The notes under the pieces were generated by a model that saw only the letters and a program-made list of their open reading frames with translations, ran no database searches and was not told the DNA's origin. This document shows, piece by piece, positions 20,397-60,536 of a stretch of DNA of 64,000 nt. The translations under genes were made by a program, and so were the position numbers. Source of the stretch: Elsinoe ampelina (Eukaryota); contig ML992511.1 of assembly GCA_010093995.1 (NCBI GenBank), positions 850,155-914,154 of the forward strand, given 5' to 3'. Positions within the stretch are counted from its first letter, which is position 1, and each line of letters opens with the position of its first letter.

Positions 20397-21673
20397 ATAC
20401 TAACACCGACGATAAACTAAATTACAATTAGTTAGGCGAGACTTAACTAAAGGAAGCCTTTATTAGCAGTATAGACGTAGGTCTTACCTAGTAGCTTATA
20501 AAGGAGAAACTTAGTAGAGCTATAATTATATAATTACTTAAAGACCTACGTATATAACCTCTAGTAGAGAGCCTTAGTTAGTAAACTACAAATAAACTAA
20601 TAGAGAAGATAGAGAATTTAGATACGAGCGGGGGTATTAATAGCTAGCAGACCTTAAGCTTTATACTAAATACTAATTGTAGGCCTAAAAGACACACGTT
20701 CTAGTATCTAGATATTCTTATAGCGATATACTTCTTACTTAGCTATTGCAGTTTCGTAGTAGATATAGACTATAGCCTATATAGAGTCTTTATAGAAGCT
20801 GTTAAGGGTAAGCTACTATAATAAGTGTATACCGAAATAGTAAGTAGTAACTAGTAGTAGGACATACAAAAGCGACTTAGAATACTAGGGGCTACTATTA
20901 TTCTATTAATTGTCGCAAGTAATTAGACCTAGGTAATAAACCATTAAGGAGATCTTATAGCATATGCTATCTATCTATTATTAGGCAACCTAAAGGTAGA
21001 AGCATATAATAGCAACTACTAGCTAGGGTAGTTACTAATCGGCTTACTTTCTATTATTAAAGATAGTAGTAATATTATTAAGGAGAAGACCTACTACGCT
21101 TATATAAAGAAAATCTTTAACGCTATTATTAATTACTACTTAAGAGGGGGTAAAATAATCTCCTATACGGATAAAAAGAAGTAGAGGTACTTCTCTATAC
21201 TTACTACTATACCTACGAATTACGCCGAATAGGTTACTATAACCAGTATAAAGTTACTATATTATTGTATAAGTTGCCTAATTAGTAAGGACGAAAGAGA
21301 GGACCTAGTAGTTACTATGCCGTTCTAAACTTACTACTCTATATAGTAATAATAGTGCTTATAGAGAGAAGCACGTAAGAGTTAATAGTAAGGTAAGAAG
21401 ATAGATATAAGCTCTTAGGTTTATATAGTTAGTTACTTCGCATAGGATCTTCTATATACTAATATTTACTACGTAATAGTGCTAGATATTCTATACTAAC
21501 TTCTTAAAGGCGTTTTAATGCACGTCTTATACTAGACTCGAAAATTGCTCTAGAATTTAATACTTATATAGAGATTACTACGGTATATAAAGGCTAGAGA
21601 GACTATATAGCGAATAGGCTACTAGCGCTTAGTAAAGGAGATTATACTTAATATTATTAATAAGCGTTTTAAC
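20032..21673 (+). pseudogene. Plavaka-family transposase, 5' part (interrupted by hAT insertion)
   Basis: De-RIP: YTEMASGDWWWDMQKRL..GATIIPLIVASDQTQV..GDLIAYAIYLSLGNL (20828-20990), LLIGLLP, ADYAEQV, PDILHQLLKGV (~21480), IIDKRF at the break; probable intron ~20322-20373. Confidence 0.88.
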
Positions 21674-22499
21674 TAGTGTAACTATTAGGGCGGGGTTAGC
21701 CCCTTTAGGTTTAGTACTGTACTAGGGTTTAGGTTAGCCTCTAGCTAGCGTAGTGCTACTAAGGGCTTAGTAGTACTAGCACTAGCTCCGCACCGTAGCT
21801 ATAATAGTACTATACTAGCACTAGGTATAGGTTAGGTTATATACATTCTAGACGTAGTATAGTACTAGGTTAGGTCGGCAGATAAGTAGTGTAGTGCTAT
21901 TAAGTCCTTAGCGTACCTTTACTAGCACTATACTAGAGTTGCTATTCTTATAGTAAATTCTTATAGTAACTACTATATCCTATAACTCTTATTACTTTTC
22001 CGCTCTAAACGCTTAAAGTTATAGTAGGTAAAGGATACTAGAGAGAAGTAAAAGTTATTAATTATTAACCCTTATATACAATTATAACCTAATAGTAATT
22101 TATAGAAGATTAACCTAATTAATATTATCTATATAACCCCTATAAGCCTATTTTATATACTTAGCTAGCAAGCCGTATACTACCTAGAACTAATACTTTA
22201 TTATCTTATTATTTGCTTTATCCGGAGAATATTCTATCCTTAGCAAGTTTACCCTTATATAAATTATAACTCTTAACTAGTAAACCGGAGTACTAAAGCT
22301 ATTAGGTAGAGTCTAAGACTAGAATAATTAGTTCTAGGCAGTTTAGCCTTTCTACTAACTTATAGTATAGTTGCGAATTGCCTTAATGCTATTAGATTAC
22401 TAGTTAATAGTAAGTATAAGGCTGTCTAGGGCCTTAATCTCTACCTAAAGGTTGTTAATAAATTTATAGTAAGTAATATTAGCCTAACGAATAATAGAG

Positions 22500-24050
22500 G
22501 GGCGAGTAGTAGACATAGTAGTAGATTTGCTTAAATTCTAGCAACTGTTAGTATAAGTTATACTATAGCGACGTAAAGGCATACTAGATAGTTATTTAAA
22601 TATTCCTAAGGAGAGAAAGAAGTAACTTAGCTAATAATCTACTTATATCCCTTAGTATAATAATAGCTATTGTTTGATAATAGCTATTGTTAGTATTGTT
22701 GTTTTTTTATAATAGATAATAGCTATTATCTATATTATTGTTCTTATAATAGGTAATACTAGATATATATACCTTTTAGTTACTATTTCTCTTTCTTTCT
22801 CTTAAACCTCTCTTTCTCGTTGTTTAATACCTCCTTCTATAATGCCTCCTTCTTATACTTAACTCTATCTCGACCTAGTAGATCTAATTCTCTTTTAGCC
22901 TTATAAGATAACTTCTAGTAACTACGCTAGGCCCTTACACCTACGTTGGTATAAAGCCTATATCTACTATATAACTCTTATATATCTTAACTTTAATAAC
23001 AACTACGAAATCTAAGCTAAATATATCTATAATAACTATAGAGGTTCGGCACTTCGCTATAAAGCCTACTATACTTATAATACCTCTTACAACTTTATAG
23101 GTGTTTCTAATCTAATCTTTCTCTATGATCTAACGAATATTAGTATAATATCTTATAGACTAATAACATCTTTAACCTAATTAACATATAGCGTACTATT
23201 AATTGTCTTATTCTTAACAGAAGAGTAGATCTACTCTTGCTCTTTACTATACGCTATAACGTTAAACGTAAGTAGGAGAAGTTAGATTATATTAACAATA
23301 GCGATAATAGTATTTCTTCTAATAACTAATCTAATTAAGGTAGCGTAGTTAAAGCGTCGGCAGGCCGATAGCTTTAGATAGTTATTAATAATATAGACTT
23401 ACACTTTATAAAGACTTAATTACGTTGCCTTTTCCTATAAGTAACTAAAATTAACTATAATAATAGCGTATATAAGCTCTTAAAGTAGGAGTGTTTATAT
23501 TACCTCTAGCTACACTAGTAGTTATATTACTACCCTAGGTAGCACTATTAGTACTAGCGGTAGAAGTACCTCCCTCGTTGTTCTCTTTACTATCGGTGTT
23601 ATTCTAGAAAGTAACTTAACTATTATCGGGCTTAAACCTAGTAAGGAAGTTAGAAGTATAATAAGGTAGATATTAGTAATAGCGTAGAGAGTAGCGTTAG
23701 TAATAAGTTAGCTAAGGTCGTAGGTGCCGTAGTAGAGGTAGTTATTAAGGTTAATAATAAGGAGAGTAGCGCGGAGATTAGTTATAGCTTTAGCCTTTGT
23801 ATTATAGTTAATCTATATAATTTTCTTATTAACGTTTTTATAAGCAAATCTAGTATAACTAACATAGATACAAATATAGTTATGTTAAAGATACTAGCGG
23901 GCAAAGGAATAAGCTTCCTTAGGGTAGCTAACGAAGGGGGACTATTAGTATTAGTAGGTAAGATTATATATAGTAATAGAGAAGGTACGCGCGGAAGTGC
24001 TTTAGAGTAGGTGTCGGCATAGATACTATAAGAGCGTTATTGCTTAGAGG
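22500..24050 (-). pseudogene. accessory ORF of the hAT element (Pro-rich plus charged coiled-coil), RIP-degraded
   Basis: Minus strand gives Lys/Glu-rich helical sequence at ~22770-23100 preceded by low-complexity sequence; no domain recognised. Confidence 0.4.
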
Positions 24051-24099
24051 CTATTAACTAGATATGCTTAGAATACTAGCCTCTAACCTTAGTAACGTT

Positions 24100-25750
24100 A
24101 TATAGTAGATCTTTGTCCTTATTATACTCTTCTTCCTCGTTAACCTCTTTATTACTTAAACTATAAGTAGTAATATCTCTAAAGTTGTTACTTATACTAT
24201 CTATTCCGCTATTAGTATTATTATTAGCAGTAGTAAAATTGTCTATCTTAGCTAATTAGATGTTTTAAAGATTGTTTTCTACTAGCTTAGAGACTATAAT
24301 TTGTTAAATTGTCTATAGAAGTAGTCTATATCTTTAATCGCTAATAACATTCTTTACTATATTAAAAATATATTTAACACCTACGCCGGCGATTAGTATT
24401 ATAAGAATATTATAAGTAATACAAGCTAGTCGTAGAAATAAGTGCTTATTTTCTTTCTACTAAGAAAGAATATTAAATTCTAATATTTCTTATATAGGTA
24501 GAGTTCTAAGATAATCCTTCCTTTCTATCCTTATTATATAGATGTCGCTCTACCCTTACGAAAGTATATTATCTTAGCTAGATACTAGAGGTGTAAAGCT
24601 ACTTCTCGTATTTAACAAGGAAGGCTTCTTAAACTAGTAAGTAATAGACGAGGCTAGTAGAGGAGGTAGGAGAGTAGTTTAAAAAGGGTAGTTATTATTA
24701 TAACAATCGAGGTAGTTAAGGAACTATTTATAGTAAAGCAATTTAAAATATAGTTCCTACGAAGTATACTTATACGCACTAAGTTTCTAAGTTAGATCTA
24801 AGATTATACTATAATTAAACAAGAAACCTTAACCTCTACTTGTTTGCTTATAATACTTAGAAAGCTTAGTATAACTAGCTTTCGCTATATTTTATATAAC
24901 TAATAGCTAGTCTAAGTTGTTATCCTCTTCCTAAGTAGACTTAACTATATTAAGGAAGTCGAAAAGGGTATTATACATAAGCTATATATATTGTACTAAT
25001 AGTGTATAAGACTAACTTAGCTAGTTAGTTACATTCTTAAAATTCTCTAGTATTTAGACGACAATCTTTAGATATGCCTATTTAGCATAGCCGAGGTAAA
25101 GGCGTTTTATATCTATATAATTAATAGATGCTATGTCTTAATTAGCTAGCGCTTTATTAGTTTAGGGCTTATATGCAATTACAATCTCTACGTTAAGCTA
25201 TTTATTAATAATTAGTTAAAGTTTAATAGCTCGCTTATATATATTATATATTAAGTTCTAATAGGTGTAAATATCCCGAACGACTAAGAGTCGTTTATAA
25301 GGAGGTAGATACGCTTAAAGAGATTTAAAGTGTTAGTAGCGTTAAGAGAATTAGTTAATTATAATATAAATCGTATAGAGCTTTAAAATTAGTTAAAAAA
25401 CTATAAGAAAGAACTATAAGAAATATAACTTACTTTATAGAGAGAATTCGGAACTAATAGAGTTATTTAAATATTATAGAGATGCTACTTCTTAAGCTTA
25501 TTAGCTTTCTTATTGTCCTCGGTAGTTTCTAGCTATAGAGCTTAAATAATATCTTATATAATAAGATTAATTACATAGGCTAGATATAGAATTATATTCT
25601 TAATAGAGGACTAGTATATATTCTTCTTCTTAAGACCTTATTATACTTTAGATCGTAGAGTGTTATTATTGCTTATATTGTCCGCTATAATAGTAAGAAG
25701 ATATATGTTAATCTTTTTTTTATTTAGAACTCTTAGTAGTTCTATACTAA
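24100..25750 (-). pseudogene. hAT transposase, 3' part
   Basis: De-RIP: LLAITADNASNN (~25700), PCLAHVINL (~25585), VVRDICTRWNSTY (~25280), and C-terminal dimerisation motif FPRLACIARDILAIPIAGVGVERIFN (~24440-24360); intron 25381-25433. Confidence 0.9.
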
Positions 25751-26213
25751 TGTCACGAACCGTCTAAATATAGCCTACGCTAGTAGTCTAAGCTAAGCCA
25801 AGAACGAGGTAGTTCTACTTCTATAGTAGTATAGCACTAAGGTAAGAGTTAGAGAAGGTATGTCTTATAGATAATAAAGTACAATTAGATAGTATTATAA
25901 AGGCTAGCCTTAGTAATACTAGTGTTTGCTATCTAGACGAGGTTAACTATAGTACTTATATAAGGTAAGGACTACTCCTATATATATGTATTCTTTACTA
26001 CGTACTCTATATACTCTATGTGCTCTATAGCGAGAATCGGAGGCAATATAGAGTATACGTCCGCTAGTAACCTACGTACTCTATAGTCCCCGGGGTAGAG
26101 CTACTAGAGAAGATAGAGAACCGGGTAAATGTCGGGCTAGGTTACGTAATAACCTTAGTAGTTTAATTAGTCCTAACATCTCTACGCTTTAGCTGTCCTA
26201 CTAGTTTATAACA
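25751..26213 (-). repeat. gypsy copy 1, 3' LTR
   Basis: TGTCACGAAC...GTTTATAACA; adjacent to the reverse-complement PPT TTACTCTCCTCCCTT. Confidence 0.95.
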
Positions 26214-26287
26214 TTACTCTCCTCCCTTAATTAAGTTATTCTAACAAGTAAGTATTCTTCTTTATCCTTATACGCTATATACTAAAT

Positions 26288-26840
26288 ATGCCTCCTAGTT
26301 GTTAAAGGTATAGTAAATCTAGTATATTTATATAAAAGAACCTCTCGAAGTTTATTAAATTGTTTAGAACTAACATACTATAAGCTTACTCTCGTTATAA
26401 GTCGAAAGGGCTAGACTATAAAGTCTATATTTAGTTAGGTATTTATAGCTAGTGTATTACGAGTAACTACTTAGGTTATAATATTTAAGTAACAAAATTA
26501 GAATAGTAGCGTCTCTAGTCTAAGTATATTTATTTGCGAAAGGAATTAGTTATAGCTAAGGCTACTAGAAAGGAAGCTAAAGAAGCTTATAAAAAGGTAA
26601 AAAAGGCTTATTAAAGAGCTATAGGTAATAAGCTTTACCTACGCGAAGAGATGTAAAAGTTAGAGGACAAGGTAGAGAAAGTAATTTCTCTAGAAGAGAC
26701 CTGTATTTAAGTCTTAGAGTAGGAGGAAATACTATCGTTAGTAGATCCCGTCCTACTATAGGACTAGTAATTATTTATGCCTAACTCTAATTAGAGTTTC
26801 TTACTTAACAACGATTAAGGTGCTTCTATTAGTTAAGTAA
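26288..26840 (+). pseudogene. antisense Cys-rich plus coiled-coil ORF of gypsy copy 1
   Basis: ATG at 26288; frame de-RIPs to MPP...ACSRCKSKGLDCKVHIRSGICGQCVASNCSGCD..EWQRLQSE..RLRKEL..ELRLREEMQKLEDK..ISLEE; 3' end uncertain. Confidence 0.7.
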
Positions 26841-29800
26841 TCTTCCTTAGGTATTCTCGTTTTTATTTAGTATTTAGAGTACTAGGTCCGTTTAGTTAGT
26901 TTACTTAGGATAGGTTCTCGATCTAGTAATCTAGAATTACTTACGAGGTAAGGTGCTCCTCTAGTTCCTATATTACTTCGCTATACTAATGTCCCTTCTA
27001 GTAAATAAGATAGTAGCGTTTTTCTTTTATAAGTTTATAACGTAAAACTCTTTTAATCTTATACTATAGCTTCTATGTTTCTTTATCTAGTTCGATAGGT
27101 CTAGGTATAGTATTCTATAGTACTTTCTCTAGTAGTGATATATAAAAGACTAGATAGATCCTTATATGTCTTAGTAGTTCTAGTTTATATACGTTCTTAT
27201 TTTTCTTTTCTAGAATCTTAAAGAGTTCTAGTTTAGTATAGTTAAGTTTCTTACTTAGTTATTTCGTTTTAATGTTTTTACTAAGGAGATAAACTTTCTC
27301 TCCCTCCTATAGAATTAGTCCCGTAATTCTCTTCTAGTTAGTAAATTCTACTATTCTTTGTAATATAAATACTATATTGTAGTATAGCTAGTTATATAGT
27401 TTCTTAATATTAGCTACTAGTATATTAGCGTCCTTAGATATTAGCTTAATTCCGAGTATGTCGTAGTATAGATCTAGGTATATTCTATAGTTTACGTAGA
27501 ATAGTGAAATTCTATTTGCTAGCTTTCTATTGTTAATAGCGAGCTCTATAAGTAGTAATAGTATTACCTATAAGTCTTACTTATAGTTTAGGTAGTATTA
27601 TAGGTACTACTCTAGTACTTAATTTGCCTATTTAGTTTGTCTGTCTATTTATAGATAAAAGGAAGTTAATAGCTTATGTTTAACTCCTAGTAGGTCTATA
27701 AATAATTACTAGAATTGTAACGTAAATAGCTTATCCCTATTAGTTATTAGGTCTTATAGTACTCTATATTATAAAACAATTGTTTAAAGGAAGGTAAAGG
27801 CTATATCCTCGGTAGTTGCTATTGTCTTATATAGTATAAAGTAGTAATACTTCGTAAACCTATCTACTAGGACTAGAATGCTATTATACTTTACACCTGT
27901 AAGAGGTTCTTCTAATAGCGGTAAAGGTCCTATAAAGTCTATTATAACTAATTACTATAGTTTATCTAGTAGTAGCAAGGGTTATAATAGGCTATATAGC
28001 TTATGTCGTAAGTGCTTAGACTTATAGCATGTATCGTATATAGTAATATATGTCTTAATATCGTTTCGAAGTTCTTTCTATAGGTAGTTTTATATAATAA
28101 GTTTAATAGTCTTATTAATCCTACTATGCCCTACTATTAAGTTATTATAGTATATTTAAATAACTTCTTTCTTCTGTTCTTACGTAAGCTCCTAGGTAAG
28201 GCTATATAACTACTTTACCTTCGGGTGCTTATAGACTAGAGCGCCGTCTTACTACTTTAGTATAGAGGCCTCTATTATTATTATGTTCTTTAAGTAATTT
28301 AGTTGTCGGCTAAGAGCGTCTACTCTACTATTCTCTAATCTCTTAATATAGTAGATCTAAAAGTTGTAGCTTATAAGTGTTTCTAACTATCGAACCTGTT
28401 ATCTATTAAGAACCTTAGTTATTGTTTAATATAATAGGTTCTTATAGTTAGTATAGACTTATATAGGTAAGGTTATTTCTTCTAGGTATACTCTCTATTT
28501 GCGGAATGCCTTTATAATTATAAGTAACTCCTTGTCGTATATGTCGTAGTTAAGTTTAGGTCTAGTTATTTTTTATAAGTAGTATATGATTAGGTAGCAT
28601 TATTCTTCCGCGTCCTTCTATGCTAGATACACTTCTATTATAAAGTCTAAGGTATCTGTTTCTAGTAGTGCTTATTAGTCTAGGTCGAAGAGTACTAGGA
28701 CAGGTACTATTATAAGTCTAAGCTTTAGTTCCTTAAAGGCCTACCTACATTTCTTATTAAAGACAAATCTAGTTTCTTTCTTTAGAAGGTTAAATATTAG
28801 TATAGCTACCTTAGAGAATCCTTTAACAAACTTATAGTAGTAGTTAAAGAACTCTAGTAGCGCTTAAACCTCCCTAACTATAGTAGGTTCTAGCTAGTTA
28901 TTTACTAACTTAATCTTTTTTAGGTCGGGTCTAATACTATTAGTAGATATAACATAGTCTAGAAATTGTATCTTATGTTTATAAAACTTATACTTAGAGA
29001 GCTTTACTAGTAGGTCTTTTTCTTTTAGTTTCTATAGTACTTTATAAATATGTCCTATATGTTTATTATATATCTTTAAGAAGATAATAATATTATCTAA
29101 ATATACTAAGATAAAGTTATTAAGGTATTCTCGTAGAGTATTATTAATTAACTCTTAGAAGGTTATAGAAGTGTTAGTTAACCTAAAGAGCATAACGAGG
29201 TACTTATATAGACTCTATTACGTCCTAAAAGCCGTCTTCTACTTCTTACTCTTCTTTATTTATACTTAATAATAGGCATTCCTAATGTTAATTACGGTAA
29301 ACTATTTAGCTCTAAGTAGTCGGTCTTAAAGTTCGTTAATCCTTAGTAGGAGATAGCAATTCTTCCTAGTAAGTGTATTAAGTTTCTAGTAATTAATATA
29401 TATTTGTAATATTCTATTCTTTTTAGATACAAAAAGTACTTCGTATATAATAGGTAATTTTAATAGTTGTATAAATCCTTTAAGTAAGTACTTATCGATA
29501 TAGTTCTTAAGGACGTTCTTCTCTTATTTCGATAGTAGTATAAGACCTTAATAGTATATTAGGGATTTACTCTCTTTAAAGAGTATTTCGTAATTCTATA
29601 GTTTATGTTAGAGTAAGGCTATAATGCCTTTTCTTTCTTTAAATAAGTCCTTAAAGTCTTTATATTCTAGCGGAAGTGCTTAATTACTTACGCTAGCGAT
29701 AGCTCTAACTATTAGTTATACTTATGCTATTCTTATAGTTAGTATCTACGGAGCTAATTATGCTCCCTACGTCCTATAATTACACTTAGGGAATTCGAGT

Positions 29801-32311
29801 GTTTCTTTAATCTAGTCTACGTCTAGATTATATTATTAAAGCTAGTCTATACTAAGTACTATGTTATACTACATGTCTACTATATTAATTAATTGTTTTT
29901 CTATGTGTGTTTTAATTTTAATTATAACATTTTATAGTTCCTAAGTGACTTTTCCGTTCTTCTCTATAGGGGTTCTATCCGCTATAGTAAGTAGGTAAGG
30001 TAACTCCTTCTAGTGTTAATAAGGTTTAAGCTAATTAGTAACTATTATAGAGACGTAGCTACAGTTAGCTCCCAAATCTATTATTACTCTTACCTTACTC
30101 CCTTATATTTTAACTTCTAGTATAAAGTAGTTTAACATGTAGATCTTTATTATATTAAGGCTTTAGCTAGTGTTATTATCTTACCTTATTAGGCGACAAC
30201 TAGCTAGTTTTTTGTTATTATAGCTCCTTAGATAAGTAGCTAATCCCTTCCTATACGTATCTACTATTAGTACTATATCTATTAAGCAAGTTATGTTTTA
30301 TCGCTATTTAATATAGTAAGGTAAACTTCTAGCGCCTAAGTCCCTTAGTGACTATAAAGTCTAATAATTCTCTACTAGTTATACTAAGTAGTATTATATA
30401 CCTATATTAGTATAACTATTCCTTCCGGGTATAGCTAGGTATTAGCATTAAAGATAAAAACAAGTTATATAGATTTGTCTTATAGTGTCCTATTCTAGTA
30501 GTAGGTGTATATTATTATATAATTCCTCTATATTCCTATAAGGTATACTTTAAGTTGTCCGCCTAGTAGTAGTATATCGTCGTTGTTATTGTCGTTGTTA
30601 GATAAGTCCTTATCTATGTTGTTATATTATAGTTATTCGGTGTATTCTTTGTTATATTTCTCTTTATCGCTACTATCCCTAGTATAGTTATAGTTAGTAA
30701 GGCTATACCGAGTATATTCTCTTACTTAGCTATAGGGGATAGTACTACCTATTTTAATTACCGAGAAGTCCGTAGTGTATTTAAGACTAATAGTGTCTTC
30801 TCTAAGTACGTTGTATAAGTAGATAGTATAGTACTATTTATAATTTGGATTTATACATTTCTAGAGCGATATATAATATACCTTTCCTTATAGTACGCTA
30901 TAAGGGCTAAAGGTAAGGCTACTATATTATTATATAGCACTTACGTCCTAATACTTTGTCTTAATAATTATATATTAGTAATTGTCGCTAACTACCTTCT
31001 AAGATTAGTTACTATTACTACTAATTATAGAGAGCTCTTCTAGGTTAGGTTCCTAGTTTAGCTATTTCGTTAATTACCTACGCTTAGATAGCTTATATAG
31101 GAACTAACTAGATCCCTACTTATCTAATAAGTAAATATAACAAGAGTTATTATAATATGCTATCTATAATAGCGTTACGTGTTAGCTTTATTATTTACTA
31201 TTAGTCGTAGAGATATTAAGTATAACATCCGGAGAGGATTCTACTACCTCTTAAGTTATTATAGACTTCTTCTATGTTTCCTTACCTACGCTAAAGGTCG
31301 TTAGGTCTTCTATAGTAGTGTTAGTCTTTTTCTCTACTAGCCTAGTAACTATTATATGTAATTTATTAGCTAGCGCCTCTTATCGGTAGTCCCTAGCCTA
31401 ATACCTAGGTCTTTTATACTTAAAACATAGATTGTCTTATCTATACTTCTCTCTCTCTTTTCTACTAAGGAACTTTCCTCTATAGCTATAGCCTTGTACC
31501 TATAAGGGGCAGCCTTTGCGTATAGTATTAAGTTCTATAGAGTCTCTATAGTTTCGAGAGGAACGTATATATCTAGTGTTTGCCTTATATCCTCTATAAC
31601 GTTCTATATGTCGTTTATAAAGTCTATTGTTAATAGCAATTATAGTGTCTACTAGTTCCTAAAGGCTATTAGGCAGCTCGAGTATTATTTAGTCTTTGAC
31701 TAAGTCGCTTAGTCCTTAATAGAATACTAAGTGTTTAGCACTATTGTCCTAGTCTAGATATATTATAAGTTATTAGAACTAGGAATAGTACTAGGCTATA
31801 GACCTATATTGTCGTAGTTGTTAGATCTTTATTATAGCAACGCGTTCCTTATTAGATACGTTAAAGACTTACTTAATCTTTGCCTAGAAGATACTAAAGC
31901 TCTTAAAGATAGCCTTTGTATCTAGGCCTAGTTATCTATCTAGGTAGCTACTTATATAAGGCTCGAACTACCCGAAGGCGGCGCCTTTAAGGTGTATCCT
32001 AGCATAGAGGACCTTTGCCGCGTCGTTAGCGTACTTATCTCCCTCTAGAGCAAAGAAGGCTTTAAGTTAAATAAGGAAGCGCCTTAAGTAAGCGTAGTCC
32101 CTATAGAAAAGTTCTACCTCTAACTTAGGCCTACTCTATTCTTCTATACTAAAAGACCTTCTATATTTGCCCGAGGTTAAACTAGTAGTAGACATGTTAT
32201 TAATAGTAAGCTTTCCTAGCTTACTAGCGATTGAAGATACTAATAGTAACTTAGAGCGAGAGTTACTTATTAACCTCGTAGCGTGCTATACTATAGTAAG
32301 GGTAGTTAAAA

Positions 32312-32774
32312 TGTTACGAACTGTCTAAACATAGCCTATACTAGTAGTCTAAGCTAAGCTAAGAACGAGGTAGTTCTACTTCTATAGTAGTATAGTACTA
32401 AGGTAAGAGTCGAAGAAGGTATATCTTATAGATAATAAAGTACAATTAGATAGTATTATAAAGGCTAGCCTTAGTAATACTAGTGTTTACTATCTAGACA
32501 AGGTTAACTATAGTACTTATATAAGGTAAGGACTACTCCTATATATATGTATTCTTTACTATGTACTCTATATACTCTATATACTCCGTAGCGAGAATCA
32601 GAAGTAATATAAAGTACATGTCCGCTAGTAACCTACGTGCTCTATAGTCCCCGGGGTAGAGCTACTAGAGAAGATAGAGAACCGGGTAAATGTCAAGCTA
32701 GGTCACGTAATAACCTTAGTAGTTTAATTAGTCCTAACGTCTCTACGCTTTAGCTGTCCTACTAGTTCGTAATA
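32312..32774 (-). repeat. gypsy copy 1, 5' LTR
   Basis: 463-bp match to 25751-26213. Confidence 0.95.
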
Positions 32775-33650
32775 GCTAAGCGTAACTCTAGTATACTATT
32801 TGCTAATTAGTACAAAATCTAGTAGGCACTTACGTACTTACTAGTTATTATTAATATAGTATACCTTTATAGCTACAAAACTTAGATACTTATTCGTAGA
32901 CTAGCTATCTAGCATAATTAAAACTTTTATCTAACTACTAAGATTAGTAAGAAGATTAGACTAAATGTCCTTATAGTGCTCTTTTAATAGCTCTAAGGCC
33001 TATGTCTAACCTAGAATATTAGTATATAGCTAGAGGAAATATATAAATTAGAGAAAGAAGGAATTATTAACTATTTAGAATAACTAATTACAATTAATAA
33101 GGACCTTAATAAGCTCTTTTTTAAATTGTTCTAGAGAGAATTATAGTATATAGGATATAGTACTAGTAGCGTTCGCTTTTAATTATATTAGAGCTATCTA
33201 AGCTACTAATTATTTATAGCTAGGAGATTTTATATTTTAGTAGCTTTAGCGTCCGAGATGTTTTGTTAGGTGTTTATTACTAATTAAGTTTATTATTAGG
33301 TGTTATAAAGCTCTACTATAGCGGAGATAATACACAAGAGGTATTTTATTAGCAAGCTTAGCACCTTTATTAAAGTTAGCCTAAATAACTCTATAGCGGG
33401 TTATAGAATTCTAGTTTAGTAGATTTCGTGTTTTACTAACCCTTAATTCGCTACCTATTAATATTATAAGCTACTATGTTTTCTAGGCTTATATAGCTAG
33501 CTATTCTTCGAGTAGTATATCTAGTTAGTAGGGTAGACAGCTAACAATTTTAATAGTTTTATAGAATCGAGTAGAGAATAAATTATCCTAGTAATTAACA
33601 TAAAACTCTTTAAGCTCGTAGGGGAGAAGTAGTAGTAGCGTAATAACTTC
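32775..33650 (-). pseudogene. hAT transposase, 5' part (probable BED zinc finger)
   Basis: Continues the transposase across the gypsy TSD; de-RIP CxxC...KHL pattern at ~33335-33255. Confidence 0.7.
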
Positions 33651-33879
33651 TAAGAGTATCTATAGTTAAGGATTAACTAAGTCTTTATTAAATATTAACA
33701 TTTTAAGAGTAGAGATATAGAATATTACTAGCTATATAACAAGGAGTAGAAGACTATAAGAATGCTCTATAAGAATCTATTAGCTACTCTTAATTTATAA
33801 ATTAAAAAAATTTTAATAGTATAGAACTAAAAAGCTACTAAAACTATAGTTTAATTTTCCTAACTTAAGGTTAATCTAT

Positions 33880-35130
33880 TTATTCTTATCTATATTATCC
33901 TTACCTTTACTCTCCTTATTATTATTATTACTCTTATCTATTGCCTTATTATTATCTTTATCCTAATTCTCTTTATTAGAATTGTTAAAGTCTCTAGTAG
34001 TAACTACTTTACGGTATATTTTAGCTACTTCCTTAGTCTTATACTTGTTAGGTTCCTTATTAAGAAGGTTCTTAATCTTAGAGTTGTTCTTAACTTCTTC
34101 TTTAACCTTGTTATTACTATACTTAACATAGTAATTATTAGATTTAAGTAAAATATTATTATTCTTATACTTAAATTCTAGTTCGGGAGTAGGTTTATAT
34201 TTACTTTAATAAATTAGTATATAACTATAAGAAATAACTATAAGAAATAATATATACCTAATTATCTACCTATACTACTTAGAGTTTAGTAGGTGTTATA
34301 TTCTTAATAAACTTCTTAAACTTAGCTTAGTTACTATCGTTATAGTTGCTAGTATTATATAGCAAGTTAACACTATTATAGTAGATCTTATAGGTCTATT
34401 TCTTAAGAATTCTACTAGTGCTAAGAAGATGTTTTACTTAGCAATTTAGGAATATATTTATCTCGTTATAGAGTGCCTTCTTTATATAATTAGTAAGGAG
34501 TTACTTATAGTAAAGGAGAGTATTAGCTTTATAGATACTACTCTATTTTTAGTAGATAGATATAAACTTATTCTTTAACTATTTCTCTATATAGAATTAG
34601 TAGATATACTATAAGAATATACTATAAGAAATATACTACTCTACTAGGTATAATAGCAAGTCTCTACTATCTTCTTATATACTATATCGAAGGTAGCTTC
34701 TTTCTCCTTATCGAATATTACTTAGAATTCCTTAGAGTTTTTAAGTTTTGCCTTAAGTATACATTTTATAGAGCAATTAGTATTACTAGTAGTAGTAAGG
34801 GCTTTCTCCTCTATACTAGCTTATATAGCGTAATCTCTTTACTAAATAGCTTACTAGGTATTACTAAGCTATACTTTCTACTATAGAATTCTAAGGGGGT
34901 AGCTATAGTAAGAAGTTCTAGTATTTTAAGAGCGATTTTTAATCTAGTATTTAATCTTATTAGCCTCGGAATTAAAACTCTATAGTCTAGTTAGTATTTA
35001 ACTATAAGAAGCATCTATAAGAATTACTTCTATTATAGTAAGGATTACTTCCTCTTCCTTAGTTATTTCTTTAGTCTTAATTACTAGAGCATTAGTTATC
35101 TCTTTCTCTTTACTAAAGGTTTACTAATCT
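33880..35130 (-). pseudogene. second accessory ORF of the hAT element, with at least 3 introns
   Basis: Minus-strand GT..CTAA(C/T)..AG introns at ~34204-34257, 34587-34639 and 34980-35027 separating charged coding-like exons; no domain recognised. Confidence 0.5.
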
Positions 35131-35523
35131 ATAGAATTAGTAAACATTATAGATTAAGAATTAGTAGTAATTTATAAGAGAAGGTAGAATATTAAGTATA
35201 ACAGGGAGTAAGATATAAGATATAAGTTTTATAAGGAGAAGATAAGGAGAGAAGGATTTAGTATTCCTTATATATATAGTAAATAGAGTAGCTAGAAATA
35301 CAAGTAATAATAGGTATTAATCCTATTATTATACTAATATAAAGTCGTTAATATTATTAATATAAAGTTATTATAGTAGAGAATAACAATACGAAATTTA
35401 TATTCTATATACTATTATAAATTCCTTAATAAGGCTTAATATCTCGCTCTTAGTATTTTCGCCTTACTCTTCTCTACCTTTATAAACAAATTTTAATAAT
35501 TAATTTAACAAATTTATATAGCT

Positions 35524-36105
35524 ATAGCTTGTAAGAAGCAAGTAATACCTCTAAAAAGGGTAAAGCTAAGGAAGTAAGGCGCTAAGAAAACCACTACTAA
35601 AAAGCCTACTATAGGTAGTTATATAACAAAATTTAGACTAGTATTAACTAGACAAATTCGCTAGGTAAAGAGCTATAGGTTTAAGCTAGGTAGTTAGTTT
35701 CTTATAGTAAATTCTTATAGTCTTATATCTAATATAGTATAGCTATTACTCTCCGAGAGATTTGTCGCTACTAGAAGATAACTAAACTTCTTATATATAA
35801 GCTTCTCTTCTTCTACGTTATTCGTAACATTATGTAAGATATTAAGTTAACACTTATAAGTAGAGATTTACGCTTTACGCTAGATGCTATTAAGTGTCTC
35901 TAGGAAGCAAGTAAAGTAATACTAGTAGGATATTTCGAAGGTATATTAACTATGTATTTAGAATATATAATACCTTATACTAACAACTATAGTAGACTAT
36001 AATCTTAACGCTATCTATACTAAGCGTTATACTATTATATAGAAAGACTCTTAGCTTACTAGGAAATATTATAACAAGTACTACCTACTTACTTTCTCTA
36101 ATTAG
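35524..36105 (+). pseudogene. histone H3-like variant gene inside the hAT element, RIP-inactivated
   Basis: De-RIP: MARKKQ...PRKQ...[92 protein letters not shown]; introns 35693-35742 and 35941-35995 with GT/branch/AG signals restore the frame. Confidence 0.93.
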
Positions 36106-36552
36106 TAAGACCTCTCCTCTATAATACTATAAGAATAAACTATAAGAAATAGGTAAGTATATTTTTACATAGACTAGACTATTAAATTTCCTTTCTATAG
36201 ACTTATTACAATACTAAAGTATAGTATAGTAACTATAGTTACCTTAAAGCCTAACTAAGGCGTAGTACTATAACGTAGTATAATACTAGGATTTAACTCT
36301 AGTGCTAATTCGGTATAGTACTATCGTAGTATAGTATAGCGCTATTATAGTATAGTACTATTCTTGCTTAACTATAGTATAGTACTAGTACTAGTATAGC
36401 TCGGCGTAGTACTAGTACTAGTGCTAATATAGTAGGGTACGGAGCTAGTACTGTTTAGTTTAGCACTAGGTGCCGACCTGCTAAGAATAGCTCTATACTA
36501 GCACTAGGGTCGGCCTTTAGCCGCTCTAACTCCGCTCTAATAGTTACACTAG

Positions 36553-37957
36553 AACTTTCGATAGTATACTAGTGTTTCTCGGTATCTAATACTTCTTATA
36601 CTACTTAGCTATTAAGTAATAGACAGGTTAAGAGTAGAAGAGTATCGTGCGCTAGATGCTTCTAATATTTATACTGCTACTTAAGGAGGTTAAGGCGCCT
36701 TAAGCTATTAAGTTTATACGCGCACTAGTTAACTTTATATTACTAGTAAACTATAAGACCTATAACGACGATATACTCTAGTATATTAACCTTACGCTCT
36801 TTAGAATAAACAAGTATAAAGAAACCTTCTAGGCCTATTATAGTAACAGGAAAGAAGAGAGCGACTTTAACTTTCTAAAATAGTACTTAATAACACATTT
36901 TTTAAAGGCTATCTATAATTTTAGAGTAGTTACTAGCCTCGATTCTAATTATTTAGAGCATAATTATATATACTTTATTAAGGACGCCTTTAAACTTACA
37001 AACAAGAAGGCTAGATAGAAAGACTAGGTTACTACTTATAATACTAAACTAGTAAATATGTTAGTAGTATTTAATAACCTCTCGAAGTTAGTTAGGCTAT
37101 CGGCTACTAAACTAATTAAGATCTAAAGTACGCTAGTTAGCGTAAGCGATATAGTAAATGTTACTTCTTAGTTTAGCTAGCCTAGTACTAAGGAGAGAGC
37201 TATATAGCGTATAGTAAGAGAACTAGAGGCGCTTATTAATATACTACCTAGGCTATTACTATAGTAAGTAATAGCAGTATTTATCCGCGAGGCTTATTAA
37301 GGTATAGCTAAGATAGGCTCTAACTTAAGAACTAAATACTCTAATTAGTTTAACGCTAAACTAGATCCCGATAGACTTAAACTAGATTCTTCCTAGGTAA
37401 GCGACCTCTACGTTAAGTTCTACTATTCTTTAAAGTGTAGGAAACTATCTAACTATAATCCTAATAATCCTAATATAGACAAATAAGACTTTATCTAGTA
37501 TATAACTAAATAGTAGAGGATATATAGCAATAAGAGACAAGACTAGCTCTAGGTATAAGAATAGACAACAAATAATAAAGGCACTAATAGAGTATTACCT
37601 AATAGCCTATAAGGTAAGTTACTAACTTATATTATATTTATAATAACTATAGAGGATAGCTTCTAGTCTAGTAGATCGAGCTAGCGTTAACGCCTATACT
37701 ACATAGGAGCGCTAGTAGATCTATATTAGCCTACTTAGCCGGATAGAGTAGCTAATTAAGAGCATAGTATAACACTAATTAAGTCTTAGATAAATCGACA
37801 CGCGCGAGTTAGACGGAATACTCTTACTAGTAGGTATATCTACTTTACCTCGTAAATCTACTATAGTATCTACGTTATACTAGTAGATAAAACAAAGCTA
37901 TATAGCTAGATATATATTAATAACATAGCTGACTTTAACATATATAATATACTATAG
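36553..37957 (+). pseudogene. Plavaka-family transposase, 3' part
   Basis: De-RIP: FDSIPVFPGI, WTGQEQKSIVRQML, RALVDFILLANYKTHNDDTL, FNFPKWHSMTHF, SEHNHIHFIKDAFKLTNKK, RQDWLWVQE, ending YINNMADFNMYN at ~37950. Confidence 0.88.
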
Positions 37958-38730: not shown

Positions 38731-39634
38731 CTTCTTTGTCCTCTAAAGCCTCCTCTATATCTATATAAGTTATAAGTATTTCCTTGTAAGATTATTAGTG
38801 TATAATATATATATAATAAATCCTATCTATAAGATTATATACTAGATTATTCTATACGCGCTATTACTACAACTATTACTTAGTAGTAGTAATAGTAGAG
38901 TAGCGGGATATAGTAGAAAAAAGTGTTATTATATCTACCTTTAAGAGGGGAATACTCTCTTTCTCTTCTATATCTTTCTTCTCGCTCTCCGCTATAGTAA
39001 GGTATACTATAACTAAAGCTACTACTACTGCTCCCTCTATAACTACTATTACTTATATATAGCTATAACTACGAGTTATTACTAGAAGCTTAGTACGCGT
39101 CGGGGTGACCTTATCTTTAATATATAGTAATAAAGTACTATAATCTTAACCCGGACACTACTTCTATTACCTCTCCGACAACTACTATAACTAGCGCTAA
39201 GGGCTAGTAAGGCAAGAAGTATACTACCTCTACCTTCGCTAGTGTCTATAGCTATACTAGTATTAAGCTTAGTAAGGCAGAGGAGAAGAGTAAGAAGCAG
39301 AAGAAGCCTCTTATTATTACTAATTACCTCCTTACTAATAACCTTATAGATAGGTAGTTAGGGTAGATCTTAAACTTCCTAGAAAGAGTATTTACTTCTC
39401 TACTATAACTGCCTTTAAGCTATCGTTTAGACTACTATGTCCTTAGTACTATCTCTAGAGCTACTTAGATACTATACTAATATCCATTAGACCTTACTTT
39501 TCTAGGTAGTCTTTCATAGCTCTAGAATTATTCTTCTAGTAGGTATACTATTCCGTGTTAGTAGACAAGGGATTAGCTTAGCCTAAACTAAATGTCTATT
39601 ATATTTCCTATACCTATCTATATTAGTATTAATC

Positions 39635-40097
39635 TATTACGAACTAGTAGGACAGCTAAAGCGTAGGGATATTAGGACTAATTAAACTACTAAGGTTATT
39701 ACGTAACCTAGCCCGATGTTTACTTAGTTCTCTATCTTCTCTAGCGGCTCTACCCTAGAGACTATAGAGCACGTAGGTTACTAGCGGACGTGTACTCTAT
39801 ATTACTCCTAATTCTCGCTACGAAGTATATAAAGTACATAAAGTACATAGTAAAGAATATATATATATAGGAGTAGTTCTTACCTTATATAAGTACTATA
39901 GTTAACCTCGTCTAGATAGTAAACACTAGTATTACTAAGGCTAGCCTTTATAATACTATCTAATTGTACTTTATTATCTATAAGATATACCTTCTCTAAC
40001 TCTTACCTTAGTGCTATACTACTATAGAAGTAGAACTACCTTGTTCTTAGCTTAGCTTAGACTACTAGCATAGACTATATTTAGACAGTTCATAACA
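39635..40097 (+). repeat. gypsy copy 2, 5' LTR
   Basis: Reverse complement of the copy 1 LTRs; 463 bp. Confidence 0.95.
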
Positions 40098-42195
40098 TTT
40101 TAACTACCCTTACTATAGTATAGCACGCTATAAGGTTAATAAGTAACTCTTGCTCTAAGTTACTATTAGTATCTTTAATTGCTAGTAAGCTAGGAAAGCT
40201 TACTATTAATGACATGTCTACTACTAGTTTAACCTCGAGCGAACATAGAAGGTCTTTTAGTATAGAAGGATAGAGTAGACCTAAGTTAGAGGTAGAACTT
40301 TTCTATAGGGACTGCACTTACTTAAGGCGCTTCCTTATTTAACTTAAAGCCTTCTTTGCCCTAGAGGGAGATAAGTACGCTAACGACGTAGTAAAGGTCC
40401 TCTATACCGGAATATATCTTAAAGGCGCTACCTTCGAGTAGTTCGAGCCTTATATAAGTAGCTACCTAGATAGATAACTAGGCCTAGATACAAAGGCTAT
40501 CTTTAAGAGCTTTAGCATCTTCTAGGCAAAGATTAAGCAAGTCTTTAACGTATCTAATAAGAAACGTATCGCTATAACGAAGATCTAATAACTATAACAA
40601 CGTAGGTCTATAGCCTAGTACTATTCCTAGTTCTAATAACTTGTAATGTATCTAGACTAGGACAATAGTACTAAACACTTAGTATTCTATTAAGGACTAA
40701 GCGACTTAGTTAAAGACTAAATAATACTCGAGCTGCCCGACAGCCTTTAGGAACTAGTAGATACTACAATTGCTATTAATAATAGACTTTATAAATAACA
40801 CATAGAACGTTATAGAGAATATAAAGTAAATACTAAATATACGTATTTCTCCCGAAACTATAGAGACCCTATAGAACTTAATGCTATATGTAAAGGCTGC
40901 CTCTTATAGATATAAGGCTACGGCTATAGAGGAAAGTTCCTTAGTAGAAAAGAGAGAGAGAAGTATAGACGAGATAATCTATATTTTAAGTATAAAAGAC
41001 TTAGGTATTAGGCTAGGGACTACTAATAAGGGGCGCTAGCCGATAGATTATATATAATAGTTGCCGGGCTAGTAGAGAAAAAGGCTAATACTACTATAGA
41101 AGACCTAACGACCTTTAGCGTAGGTAAGAAAACATAGAAGGAGTCTATAATAACTTAAGAGGTAGTAGAATCCTCTCTAGATGTTATACTTAATATCTCT
41201 ATAACTAATAGTAAATAACAAAGCTAATATATAACGCTATTATAGATAGTATATTATAATAACTCTTGTTATATTTACTTATTAGACAAGTAGAGATCTA
41301 GTTAGTTCCTATATAAGCTATCTAAGCGTAGGCAACTAACGAAATAGCTAGACTAGGAACCTAACCTAGAAGAGCTCTCTATAATTAGTAGTAATAGTAA
41401 CTAACCTTAGAAGGTAGTTAGCGATAATTACTAATATACAATTATTGAGATAAAGTATTAGGACATAAGTGCTATACAATAATATAGTAGCCTTACCTTT
41501 AGCCCTTATAGCGTACTATAAGGAAAGGCATATTATATATTACTCTAGAAATGTACAAATCTAGATTGTAAATAGTACTATACTATCTACTTATATGACA
41601 TACTTAGAGAAGACACTATTAGTCTTAAATATACTATAGACTTCTCGGTAATCGAAATAGGTAGTACTATCCCCTATAGCTAAGTAAGAGAATATACTTA
41701 GTGTAGCTTTACTAACTATAACTATACTAGGGGTAGTAGCGACGAAGAGAAATATAACAAAGAATACACCGAATAACTATAATATAACAACACGGATAAG
41801 AACTTATCTAATAACAATAATAACAATAATAACGTACTACTACTAGGCAGACAACTTAAAGTATACCTTATAGGGATATAGAGGAATTATATAATAATAT
41901 ACACCTACTACTAGAATAGGACACTATAAGACAAATCTATATAACCTATTTTTGTCTTTAATACTAATGCCTAGCTACACCTAGAAGGAATAGTTATACT
42001 AATATAGGTATGTAACACTACTTAGTGTAACTAGTAGAGAATTATTAGACTTTATAGTTACTAAGGGACTTAGGCGCTAGAAGTTTACCTTACTATATTA
42101 AACAGCGATAAAACACAACTTACCTAATAGATATAGTACTAATAGTAGATACGTGTAGGAAGGGATTAGCTACTTATCTAAGGAGCTATAATAAC

Positions 42196-42233
42196 AAAAA
42201 ACTAGCTAGTTGTCGCCTAATAAGGCAAGACAA
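42196..42233 (+). promoter_or_regulatory. probable -1 ribosomal frameshift signal between gag and pol
   Basis: Slippery heptamer AAAAAAC followed by a hairpin TTGTC-GCC...GGC-AA-GACAA, just upstream of the protease; heptamer conserved in copy 1 (~30207-30213, minus). Confidence 0.6.
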
Positions 42234-45200: not shown

Positions 45201-45569
45201 AAAGAAAAACAAGAACGTATATAAACTAGAACTACTAAGATATATAAGGATCTATCTAGTCTTTTATATATTACTACTAGAGAAAGCACTATAGAATACT
45301 ATACCCGGACCTATTAAACTAGATAAAGAAACATAGGAGCTACGGTATAAGATTAAAAGAGTTTTACGTTATAAACTTATAAAAGGAAAACGCTACTATC
45401 TTATTTACTAGAAGGGATATTAGTATAGCGAAGTAATATAGGAACTAGAGGAGTACCTTACCTCGTAAGTAATCCTAGATTACTAGATTAAGAACTTATC
45501 CTAAGTAAACTAACTAGACAGACCTAGTACTCTAAATACTAAATAAAAACGAGAATGCCTAAGGAAGAT

Positions 45570-46121
45570 TACTTAACTAATAGAAGTACCTTAATCGTTG
45601 CTAAGTAAGGAACTTTAATTAGAGTTAGGCATAAATAATTGCTAGTCCTATAGTAGAATAGGATCTACTAATAACAGTATTTCCTCCTACTCTAAGACTT
45701 AAATACGAGTCTCTTCTAGAGAGATTACTTTCTCCACCTTGTTCTTTAACTTTTATATCTCTTTACGTAGGTAAAGCTTATTACCTATAGCTCTTTAACA
45801 AGTCTCTTTTACCTTTTTATAAGCTTCTTTAGCTTCCTTTTTAGTAGTCTTAGCTATAACTAATTCCTTTCGCAAATAAATACGCTTAGACTAGAGACGC
45901 TACTATTTTAATTTTATTACTTAAATATTATAACTCGAGTAGTTACTTGTAACATACTAGCTATAAATACCTAACTAAATATAGACTTTATAGTCTAGCC
46001 CTTTCGACTTGTAACAAGAGTAAGCTTATAGTATGTTAGTTCTAAATAATTTAATAAACTTCGAGAGGTTCTTTTATATAGATATACTAGATTTACTATG
46101 CCTTTAACAACTAGAAGGCAT
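45570..46121 (-). pseudogene. antisense Cys-rich plus coiled-coil ORF of gypsy copy 2
   Basis: ATG retained at 46121 (minus), the exact equivalent of 26288; co-linear with copy 1. Confidence 0.7.
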
Positions 46122-46195
46122 GTTTAGTATATAGCGTATAAGGACAAGGAAAGATACTTACTTATTAGAATAACTTAATTAAGGGAGGAGAGTAA

Positions 46196-46658
46196 TATTA
46201 CAAACTAGTAGGGCAGCTAAAGCGTAGGGATATTAGGACTAATTAAACTACTAAGGTTATTACGTAACCTAGCTCGACATTTACCTAGTTCTCTATCTTC
46301 TCTAGCGGCTCTACCCTAGGGACTATAGAGCATATAGGTTACTAGCGGACGTGTACTCTATATTACTCCCGATTCTCGCTATAGAGTATATAGAGTATAT
46401 AGAGTACATAGTAAAGAATATATGTATATAGGAGTAGTCCTTACCTTATATAAGTACTATAGTTAACCTTGTCTAGATAGTAAACACTAGTATTGCTAAG
46501 GCTAGCCTTTATAATACTATCTAATTGTACTTTATTATCTATAAGATATACCTTCTCCGACTCTTACCTTAGTGCTATACTACTATAGAAGTAGAACTAC
46601 CTCGTTCTTAGCTTAGCTTAGACTACTAGCGTAGGCTATGTTTAGATAGTTCGTGACA
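46196..46658 (+). repeat. gypsy copy 2, 3' LTR
   Basis: Ends GTTCGTGACA, followed by TSD TAATC. Confidence 0.95.
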
Positions 46659-46789
46659 TAATCTTCTTAGAATAGGCTATAGCCTTGCTACTATAGCCAC
46701 TATTAACGTAGTGTATCTAGCTTCTATTATTATTCTCTTCTTACGTCACTAATAACTTCTAAGTACTAGAACAGGTCTATAGGTATTTA

Positions 46790-49362: not shown

Positions 49363-49489
49363 GTGAGGGAATGGGTCGAGATGTAAGCAGACGAGGAAAG
49401 GACTGTTGGGTATGTGGTGGGATTACAAGCGCGCGCTGTGGGATAGAAATGATAACATGACCTAGATAGTCATCCAGCTTTCATCACGC

Positions 49490-50302: not shown

Positions 50303-50413
50303 TCAGGTCCTTCCAAGATTTCACTCACGGTATCCGGCGAAAGTCCTCCTTTGCATTTAGCGAGGAACGACTCTGGACCCTTTTCTTCTCGGGCGATCAA
50401 GTCCTTGGAACCT

Positions 50414-60406: not shown

Positions 60407-60536
60407 TAGGGATTCTTATCGCTGGTACCAGGAGGAAGGGGTTAGGGACTCTCGTCGCTGATGTGGCAGAGTGGTCAAGGAGTCGTGAACTTGGAGGGGC
60501 CGAATATATCTCGGAGTCTCCTCGGAGATGTGGCAG
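60407..60536 (-). repeat. second, inverted cluster of the 27-bp core repeat
   Basis: Consensus-like copy at 60443-60469 (revcomp CTGCCACATCAGCGACGAGAGTCCCTA); degenerate copies at ~60407 and ~60513. Confidence 0.8.

Follow-up and report, generated by a model that had tools for sequence, protein, structure and literature searches.

The 64-kb stretch of Elsinoe ampelina DNA studied here (hereafter the window, meaning the whole stretch at its full length of 64,000 nucleotides) carries a hAT transposon at positions 21673-36552, which has undergone repeat-induced point mutation (RIP) and is split by a nested long terminal repeat (LTR) retrotransposon. As judged by homology, this element belongs to a Pyrenophora-type family with three genes: a transposase gene, a central open reading frame (ORF) and a gene encoding a histone H3-like protein. 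Within it we found a short sequence arranged in tandem pairs, here called the doublet, which lies in introns of the three genes, ahead of the transposase start codon and near both ends, and which recurs in unmutated relatives. The doublet looks like a control signal of the fungal hAT clade that carries an H3-like gene. The interpretation we prefer, tentatively and with somewhat less than even confidence, is that it forms a tandem binding site on DNA for a factor encoded by the element itself.

Occurrence of the doublet in the window

A pattern scan of both strands with TTCTTATAGW-NNN-TTCTTATAGT gave eight exact matches in the window, all of them where a sequence-only reading of this DNA had placed them, and the count in 100 dinucleotide-preserving shuffles of the window had a mean of 0.00 and a maximum of 0. 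The 10-mer of which the doublet is built has 17 exact copies in the window, 14 within doublets. Two doublet halves deviate from it, reading TTCTTATAGA, and the three single copies outside doublets are at 28439 and 29730, in the nested retrotransposon, and at 43961, in a second copy of that retrotransposon. When up to three mismatches per doublet were allowed, a single extra weak match appeared beyond the element, at 10736 (3 mismatches). Positions 1-47,500 consist of AT-rich DNA of the RIP type with a guanine-plus-cytosine (GC) content of about 0.29, and positions 48,000-63,000 have a GC content of about 0.53. No exact doublet is present in the remaining RIP-mutated DNA of the window, roughly 40 kb, in line with the sequence-only reading, which had noticed none outside the hAT, and none was found in the GC-rich host-gene part, a small sample of about 15 kb.

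Five of the eight doublets lie within introns that are 48-54 nt long and have GT..AG borders. Each of them is downstream of the 5′ splice site and upstream of an ACTAAT or ACTAAC branch-point motif, and is sense to its own gene. Their proposed assignment to short introns of three different genes agrees with the splice signals and with the exons of relatives. One doublet is 51 nt upstream of the transposase ATG (33701), and the remaining two are 272 and 404 nt inside the element ends, both facing inward, which matches the first description of these sites. Position 3 of the half-site is C in 16 of 16 window half-sites. (A lone half-site at 32968 on the plus strand lies about 60 nt off the place expected for a coding-exon copy described below, with an unmatched frame, and was left uncounted.)

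Conservation in unmutated relatives

A read-through translation of the window transposase led to one unmutated relative protein (P0001), and a search with that protein returned 76 proteins at E <= 1e-10, those with a species name that come nearest being from Pyrenophora tritici-repentis. The homologues carry the hAT dimerisation domain (PF05699). Scanning metagenome contigs with the transposase alignment yielded 55 loci. The close relatives among them (L001-L014) show 47-53% identity, have GC contents of 0.41-0.50 and are not RIP-mutated; L005 was dropped as a near-duplicate of L004, leaving 13 loci in the motif counts. Several close relatives are whole elements of 5.6-6.5 kb, L003 extending from terminal inverted repeat to terminal inverted repeat, and the gene order of the window is found in L003, L004, L006 and L008. 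Both ends of the relatives have TAGGCTGGCAAA-type terminal repeats, and the L004 transposase matches PF05699 with E = 3.6e-18. The L002 transposase (35-1180) has an in-frame stop, so the metagenome copies are not all intact.

In the relatives the doublet has the form TTATCACAG-N4-TTATCACAG, with 94 doublets in the 13 non-RIP loci, whose transposases are about 50% identical. Same-strand half-sites up to 40 nt apart are separated only by 13 nt (52 times), 26 nt (3 times) or 39 nt (twice). Between relatives the half-sites are kept, while spacers and flanks vary. When the window TTCTTATAG is aligned with the relatives, the two Ts before A match C in the relatives, and on this comparison TTCTTATAG is a RIP-mutated TTCTCACAG. 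The sequence-only reading had anticipated C at these positions before RIP, and the relatives, which read TTATCACAG, lead to the same original TTCTCACAG in the window. A TATA core as the original sequence, guessed from RIP indices, was rejected because the relatives carry C there. Position 3, always C in the window, is A in the half-sites of the relatives (91 and 92 of 94). Since RIP cannot create C, the window lineage would have changed position 3 in all copies together.

The 41 more distant hAT loci (294,945 bases) contain no doublet, and the central ORF and the H3-like gene were not found in them either. Because the non-RIP relatives keep the doublet and the other RIP DNA of the window is without it, the motif is, on present comparisons, specific to this hAT clade and not a by-product of RIP. 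It is neither equally common in unrelated RIP DNA nor lost from unmutated elements, 13 of which keep it. The pattern of conservation marks the doublet as a clade-specific cis-element under purifying selection, made of a tandem pair with fixed spacing.

Placement in introns

We refer to the introns of the central ORF as c1 to c3 and to those of the transposase gene as t1 and t2. A sense doublet is present in 29 of 29 homology-defined introns (c2, c3, t1 and t2, in 11 loci) and an antisense doublet in none of the 29, and the doublet is absent from 1,140 of 1,140 control coding windows. This count allowed at most 4 mismatches in 18 positions and required homologous exons to either side of the intron; c1, introns of the H3-like gene and junctions that lacked one or both flanking alignments fall outside it, and doublets are present there too. 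Intron t1 holds a doublet in 12 relatives. The measurable introns (n = 27) are 42-57 nt long. Each intron contains one doublet, whose distance from the GT is 5-6 nt in 18 introns and 11-17 nt in 11, with the branch-point motif mostly 7 or 1 nt past the doublet. By arithmetic on the intron rows, the distance from GT to branch point is about 35 nt in both registers, and the doublet takes up 22 of the approximately 29 nt that separate the 5′ splice site from the branch point. A G follows CAG in only 1 of 94 first half-sites.

The H3-like gene had been proposed to take part in the same scheme, and the relatives bear this out, since their H3-like intron and leader carry doublets that are flipped to the strand of that gene. 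H3-like intron 1 follows R-Y/F-K-P/L-G-S in the window and in L003, L006, L008 and L009, and is absent from L004/L005 (L004 725-1138). The L004 H3-like protein, encoded at 725-1138 on the minus strand, begins MARTKQKASKSTGGKAP. Compared with the canonical H3 tail, we take the residue before the lysine-9 position to be altered in this protein, which could change silencing marks.

Intron t2 is precisely absent from the window, where it would be expected at about 24772, and is present in the relatives. An intron at the t1 junction is absent from 20 of 22 distant hAT loci and present, lacking a doublet, in L043 (10539-10635) and L046 (6448-6544). Because these two loci have an intron at the t1 position that lacks the doublet, the doublet was probably placed in an older intron.

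Placement in leaders, ends and a coding exon

Leader doublets of the relatives precede the start codons of the transposase and the central ORF by about 2-56 nt, and lie farther ahead of the H3-like ATG. Where the H3-like gene and the central ORF diverge, 15 of 15 doublets in the region between them (4 loci) point to the nearer gene. Inward-facing terminal copies number eight on the plus strand at the H3-like end and ten on the minus strand at the transposase end, and L004/L005 have a 5-unit array at one end. Subterminal copies face inward at both ends, but most doublets are internal, in introns, leaders and exon 1. The copy at the transposase end is antisense and covers the last codons (R-Y-C-D) plus the stop codon.

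Another antisense doublet lies within transposase exon 1 in 9 loci, over the codons V-I-T-S-R-Y-K-F. Across nine loci (L011 being dropped as near-identical to L010), third-codon-position conservation at this copy is 0.877, the maximum of the exon (median 0.565, 95th percentile 0.717), and the top 9 of 339 windows all overlap it. Val is encoded by GTG in 7 of 7 cases and Ile by ATA in 8 of 8, codons with a background use of 14% and 26%, respectively; one half of the copy departs from the consensus at 2 positions. Because it has the highest third-codon-position conservation of the exon, this coding copy is, on the evidence of codon alignments, under selection at the nucleotide level.

We considered whether the leader and exon copies could be hidden introns, and rejected this by eye as the surrounding splice signals are lacking; a likeness of the half-site to the terminal inverted repeat was, also by eye, unconvincing. 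In three of the four complete elements the sites are distributed more evenly than in random placement (chance of a largest gap as small as the one observed 0.009, 0.005, 0.043 and 0.28), although the four loci are homologous and the tests thus not independent. The ends of L003, L004, L006 and L008 also have inverted arrays of G-rich, telomere-like short repeats of the GGGTTGGGGTT type, which are a repeat class distinct from the doublet.

These results refine the sequence-only reading. Its interpretation stood with regard to hAT specificity, the pre-RIP C, the membership of the H3-like gene and the introns, but it had missed the separate subterminal repeat class. Likewise, its account of placement was right for the sites in the window, but lacked the copies that relatives have in 5′ leaders, in a coding exon and over a stop codon.

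RNA contigs and candidate readers

Contigs of four public runs were mapped on L009; two of the runs, X1 and X5, are from two studies and were guessed to be RNA. In each of X1 and X5, one contig joins L009 647/693, 1036/1084 and 1409/1459, and two further contigs of X1 join 3239/3289 and 3900/3952. These five joints correspond to introns c1, c2, c3, t1 and t2, with GT..AG borders and 45-51 nt skipped, each including a doublet. Run X19, whose kind is not on record, has L009 1-4847 unspliced in a single contig. The central-ORF contigs start at L009 457 and 448, upstream of the leader doublet (485-506), which puts this leader copy in the 5′ untranslated region (UTR). Another contig departs from L009 at 48 into what, by our own translation, is apparently the next H3-like exon, across the H3-like intron. 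No contig in X1 or X5 covers the terminal doublet of L009 (4564-4732). The contigs carry no information on strand, transcript ends or intron retention.

There are two candidate proteins, the central-ORF protein and the transposase N-terminus, alongside the two repeat classes (doublet and G-rich array). The N-terminus of P0001 has a C-x2-C...H-x4-H pattern, which we take to be a BED-type zinc finger. The central ORF has 83 homologues, among them four full-length forms of about 350 amino acids; a longer homologue was not found in a word-indexed search. The four full-length proteins share a long acidic tail and an RGRP-like motif, presumably an AT-hook, and three of them (P0078, P0080 and P0084, not P0085) have a conserved EFEGFS(D/P) end. 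The central-ORF protein matches no Pfam family. Its AlphaFold2 model has a mean predicted local distance difference test (pLDDT) score of 83.8 and is almost all helical, with no Foldseek match in PDB at E <= 0.001 and, in VIA-align, generic long-helix matches only (Z <= 6.5).

Interpretation of the doublet

We infer that the doublet is read by a protein, that this protein is encoded by the element, and that it binds DNA rather than RNA. The unit would be a half-site of 9-10 nt (TTATCACAG in relatives, pre-RIP TTCTCACAG here) repeated head to tail with a 13-nt period, such that two protomers of a sequence-specific factor could bind the doublet on double-stranded DNA. Candidate readers are the central-ORF protein, which is specific to the clade, and the transposase's zinc-finger N-terminus. 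The element would spread its sites through every non-coding niche, namely subterminal DNA, 5′ leaders and each short intron, and where an exon is over-long the site would be written into codons, so that a single factor could act on all three genes and both ends. Recognition on DNA is suggested by the conserved antisense copies, the terminal pair and the subterminal array, and also by the even spread of sites in three of four complete elements. An element-encoded reader is suggested by the concerted change at position 3, and by the co-occurrence of the doublet with the central ORF and the H3-like gene.

Several observations weigh against a plain DNA site. Such a site would not need an orientation that follows transcription, as seen in 29 of 29 sense introns, nor the direction of all 15 divergent-region doublets (4 loci) at the nearer gene, nor exactly one doublet in each intron. 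As the leader copy of the central ORF is inside RNA contigs, the sense copies all occur in RNA. In our own judgement, formed without a tool, the antisense motif does not look strongly like a splice site, and splicing constraints explain the bias poorly. Furthermore, the ends carry the G-rich arrays, a second repeat class that is the commoner kind of hAT transposase site, and no domain of Pfam is recognised in the central-ORF protein.

The perfect sense orientation in introns and leaders, together with the one-to-one relation with introns, suggests a role at the level of RNA or coupled to transcription. The sense sequence UUAUCACAG-N4-UUAUCACAG in 5′ UTRs and introns could be bound by an RNA-binding protein of the host or the element, which would jointly set splicing efficiency, intron retention or translation of the three genes. 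This explanation is possible, though rather unlikely in our view. It would account for a sense doublet in every one of the 29 introns and an antisense doublet in none, for the single doublet that fills 22 of about 29 nt with a GT-to-branch-point distance of about 35 nt in both registers, and for leader copies that are sense and switch with the strand of the gene. The transcribed central-ORF leader copy and the five spliced doublet introns in contigs from two studies fit it as well, and so does the rarity of G after CAG (1/94 first half-sites), as though the half-site were kept from serving as a 3′ splice site. However, the conserved antisense copies in transposase exon 1 and at the 3′ ends of both terminal genes would be useless to a reader of sense RNA, the subterminal 5-unit array is outside known transcripts, and the spliced forms were seen without a sign of regulation.

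The three other explanations are much weaker. The half-sites might be bound by a GATA-type transcription factor of the host, which would tie expression of the element to a host signal. The GATA core is HGATAR, and in relatives no part of the half-site is more conserved than TTATCA (TGATAA on the opposite strand); paired GATA sites are also typical of targets of fungal GATA factors. However, C at position 3 in all 16 window half-sites gives a pre-RIP GAGAA, which is no GATA site, GATA factors would not need the conservation of ACAG, the strict 13-nt period or the orientation bias, and neither 41 other hAT loci nor the window's 15 kb of host genes contain the motif, so that we consider this very unlikely.

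Marginally less credible still is base pairing within the pre-mRNA, whereby sense doublets of leaders and introns would pair with antisense ones (in transposase exon 1 and its 3′ end, and in the H3-like 3′ region) to form long-range duplexes that restrain splicing or translation, or make double-stranded RNA. Both orientations are conserved in the transposase unit, the 13-nt period would hold two 9-bp helices in register, and the joint change of all copies at position 3 in the window lineage would also suit pairing. Nevertheless, the central ORF, with three sense introns and a sense leader, has an antisense partner only in L001, the 4-nt spacers of different copies do not complement each other, one half of the exon copy is 2 positions off the consensus, and the terminal copy of L009 (4564-4732) has no covering RNA contig.

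Least probable of all is a functionless relic of introns derived from one copied, introner-like cassette whose shared core was inherited: the introns are uniform in length (42-57 nt) and layout and their presence varies (the window lacks t2, L004 lacks H3-like intron 1), but at about 50% protein identity only the half-sites are conserved, indicating selection on the motif, copies exist beyond introns in leaders, ends and the selected coding exon, and L043 and L046 have the t1-position intron without the doublet.

The preferred reading of the doublet as a DNA site for an element-encoded factor has an extension, quite unlikely in our estimation, in which the introns are mainly carriers of binding sites. 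The doublets, spaced every few hundred bases along the element in introns, leaders and codons, would load the central-ORF protein with its acidic tail, and this protein would in turn recruit the H3 variant that the element carries. If true, the transposon, independently of the host, would determine its own chromatin state and regulate its three genes together. More generally, the pattern points to one recognition code common to the three genes that a mobile element carries, among them a captured histone H3 variant, the role of which has been a question since 2013. It offers a handle on the role of the central ORF, on why the transposon keeps an H3-like gene, and on introns kept for their cargo. 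The unmutated consensus permits recognition of decayed RIP copies, and the motif marks the family in metagenomes.

Structure of the element in the window

Table 1. Positions in the window of the hAT element's ends, genes, introns and doublets, and of the insertion nested in it
Feature	Positions	Strand	Basis or remark
Left terminal inverted repeat, transposase side	21673-21699	+	27 nt, 25/27 identical to the reverse complement of 36526-36552
Terminal doublet, inward-facing, antisense to transposase	21945-21967	+	Exact pattern match; counterpart in relatives overlaps the transposase stop codon
Transposase exon after intron t1, including hAT dimerisation domain (24289-24516)	24286-25380	-	Pfam and homology
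Transposase intron t1, 53 nt	25381-25433	-	GTAAGT..ACTAAT..AG; homologue exons on both sides
Doublet in t1	25400-25422	-	Exact pattern match
Nested LTR retrotransposon, within transposase exon 1 and outside the motif system	25749-32775		LTRs 25749-26206 and 32310-32767
Transposase exon 1, N-terminal part, ATG 33701-33699	32776-33701	-	Homology (33410-32811) and ATG
Leader doublet, sense, 51 nt upstream of the transposase ATG	33753-33775	-	Exact pattern match
Central ORF exons	34029-34817	-	tblastn with exons of relative L004: 34817-34653, 34410-34273, 34157-34029
Central ORF intron c3, 54 nt	34204-34257	-	Splice signals and homology
Doublet in c3	34224-34246	-	Exact pattern match
Central ORF intron c2, 53 nt	34587-34639	-	Splice signals and homology
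Doublet in c2	34608-34630	-	Exact pattern match
Central ORF intron c1, 48 nt	34980-35027	-	Splice signals and homology
Doublet in c1	35001-35023	-	Exact pattern match
H3-like intron 1, 53 nt	35690-35742	+	Splice signals; same position, with doublet, in L003, L006, L008 and L009
Doublet in H3-like intron 1	35699-35721	+	Exact pattern match
H3-like exon 2, histone fold	35743-35960	+	Pfam Histone 35748-35939; homology 35745-35960
Terminal doublet, inward-facing, H3-like side	36126-36148	-	Exact pattern match; matching copy present in relatives
Right terminal inverted repeat	36526-36552	-	Pairs with the left repeat

Without the nested retrotransposon the hAT element is 7,853 bp long, with RIP indices of 1.85 (TpA/ApT) and 0.23 ((CpA+TpG)/(ApC+GpT)), compared with 0.56 and 1.25 in the GC-rich part. 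Exons of a relative's transposase map to 33410-32814, 25751-25440, 25305-24772 and 24477-24286 on the minus strand, and PF05699 is detected (E = 0.00013) despite RIP. The retrotransposon has LTRs of 458 nt and a second copy at 39634-46659 that is 92.6% identical. The 7.0-kb copies have an integrase-like ORF, and the second copy is reversed and 7 kb from the one nested in the hAT element.

An 8-bp target site duplication was not found when the left flanks GTTTTAAC/CGTTTTAA were compared with the right flanks GAACTTTC/AACTTTCG. The differences between the flanks, compared around 21665-21673 and 36552-36560, are not of the RIP type, and the terminal repeats are intact. The window copy may be rearranged, or a recombinant with ends from two copies. 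About 2 kb of RIP DNA (approximately 22030-24050) separate the acidic tail of the transposase from its basic C-terminal tail with the terminal doublet, two parts that adjoin in relatives. This DNA has two short palindromic self-matches only (22 and 18 nt), and a domain search of it was empty; it may be another nested insertion. Just beyond the left end of the hAT element, a fragment of a Plavaka-type transposase (PF18759, E = 3.2e-07) is present at 21065-21527 on the plus strand.

Comparison with known systems

DNA transposons have repeated protein-binding motifs near their ends. In hAT elements, transposases bind subterminal repeats, such as the hexamers of Ac/Ds and the subterminal repeats of Hermes, the latter bound by BED domains. 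The doublet resembles these in being a short, element-specific repeat that is inverted inside both ends and presumably read by an element protein. It differs in being a strict pair with a 13-nt period, in its spread over the whole element (introns, leaders and codons), in following the orientation of genes, and in coexisting with a separate G-rich subterminal array.

Autoregulatory RNA sites are known from introns and UTRs, examples being the control of P-element intron 3, yeast RPL30, and Sxl acting on msl-2. The doublet is similar to these as one sense motif found in introns and a leader, but it also has conserved antisense copies. Introner-like elements of Dothideomycetes are reportedly responsible for many introns with a common sequence. 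In the present case, by contrast, only a 22-nt core is common, it is limited to the genes of one transposon, copies exist beyond introns, and the doublet is absent from 15 kb of host genes in the window and from 295 kb of fungal-type loci.

We know of no case in which one strictly spaced pair occurs in every intron and every leader, in a coding exon, over a stop codon and at both ends. Motif-string and topical searches of the literature found no description of such a motif among the matches listed.

Two groups of hAT elements with H3 genes have been described. According to the portions of the article available, the H3-like hAT of Pyrenophora tritici-repentis is about 5.6 kb long, its terminal inverted repeats enclosing a transposase, a central ORF and an H3-like gene (Manning et al. 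2013, PMC3538342). The window element shares this three-gene layout, and the nearest named transposases of its family are from that species. It differs from the Pyrenophora element, as far as the latter is presented there, in being RIP-mutated and in containing a nested retrotransposon and about 2 kb of extra sequence. An intron or leader motif is not described in the available portions of PMC3538342. The H3-carrying hATs of Mycosphaerellaceae are, in the available parts of their description, about 9.5 kb long and not similar to the Pyrenophora element, and their H3 copies are intronless retrocopies (Dhillon et al. 2019, PMC6710886). Their consensus file contains neither the 10-mer in either orientation nor two guesses at its de-RIP form, apart from any matches that span lines, and it has the forward 9-mer once, in an unrelated context. 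A motif such as the doublet is not mentioned in the available portions of either article (PMC3538342, PMC6710886). Like these Mycosphaerellaceae elements as there portrayed, the window element is RIP-mutated and has a captured H3-like sequence within an AT-rich block. The doublet belongs to a kind of sequence that is already known, the element-specific repeated cis-motifs of DNA transposons; what is unusual is its layout, which extends over the whole element and is housed in introns.

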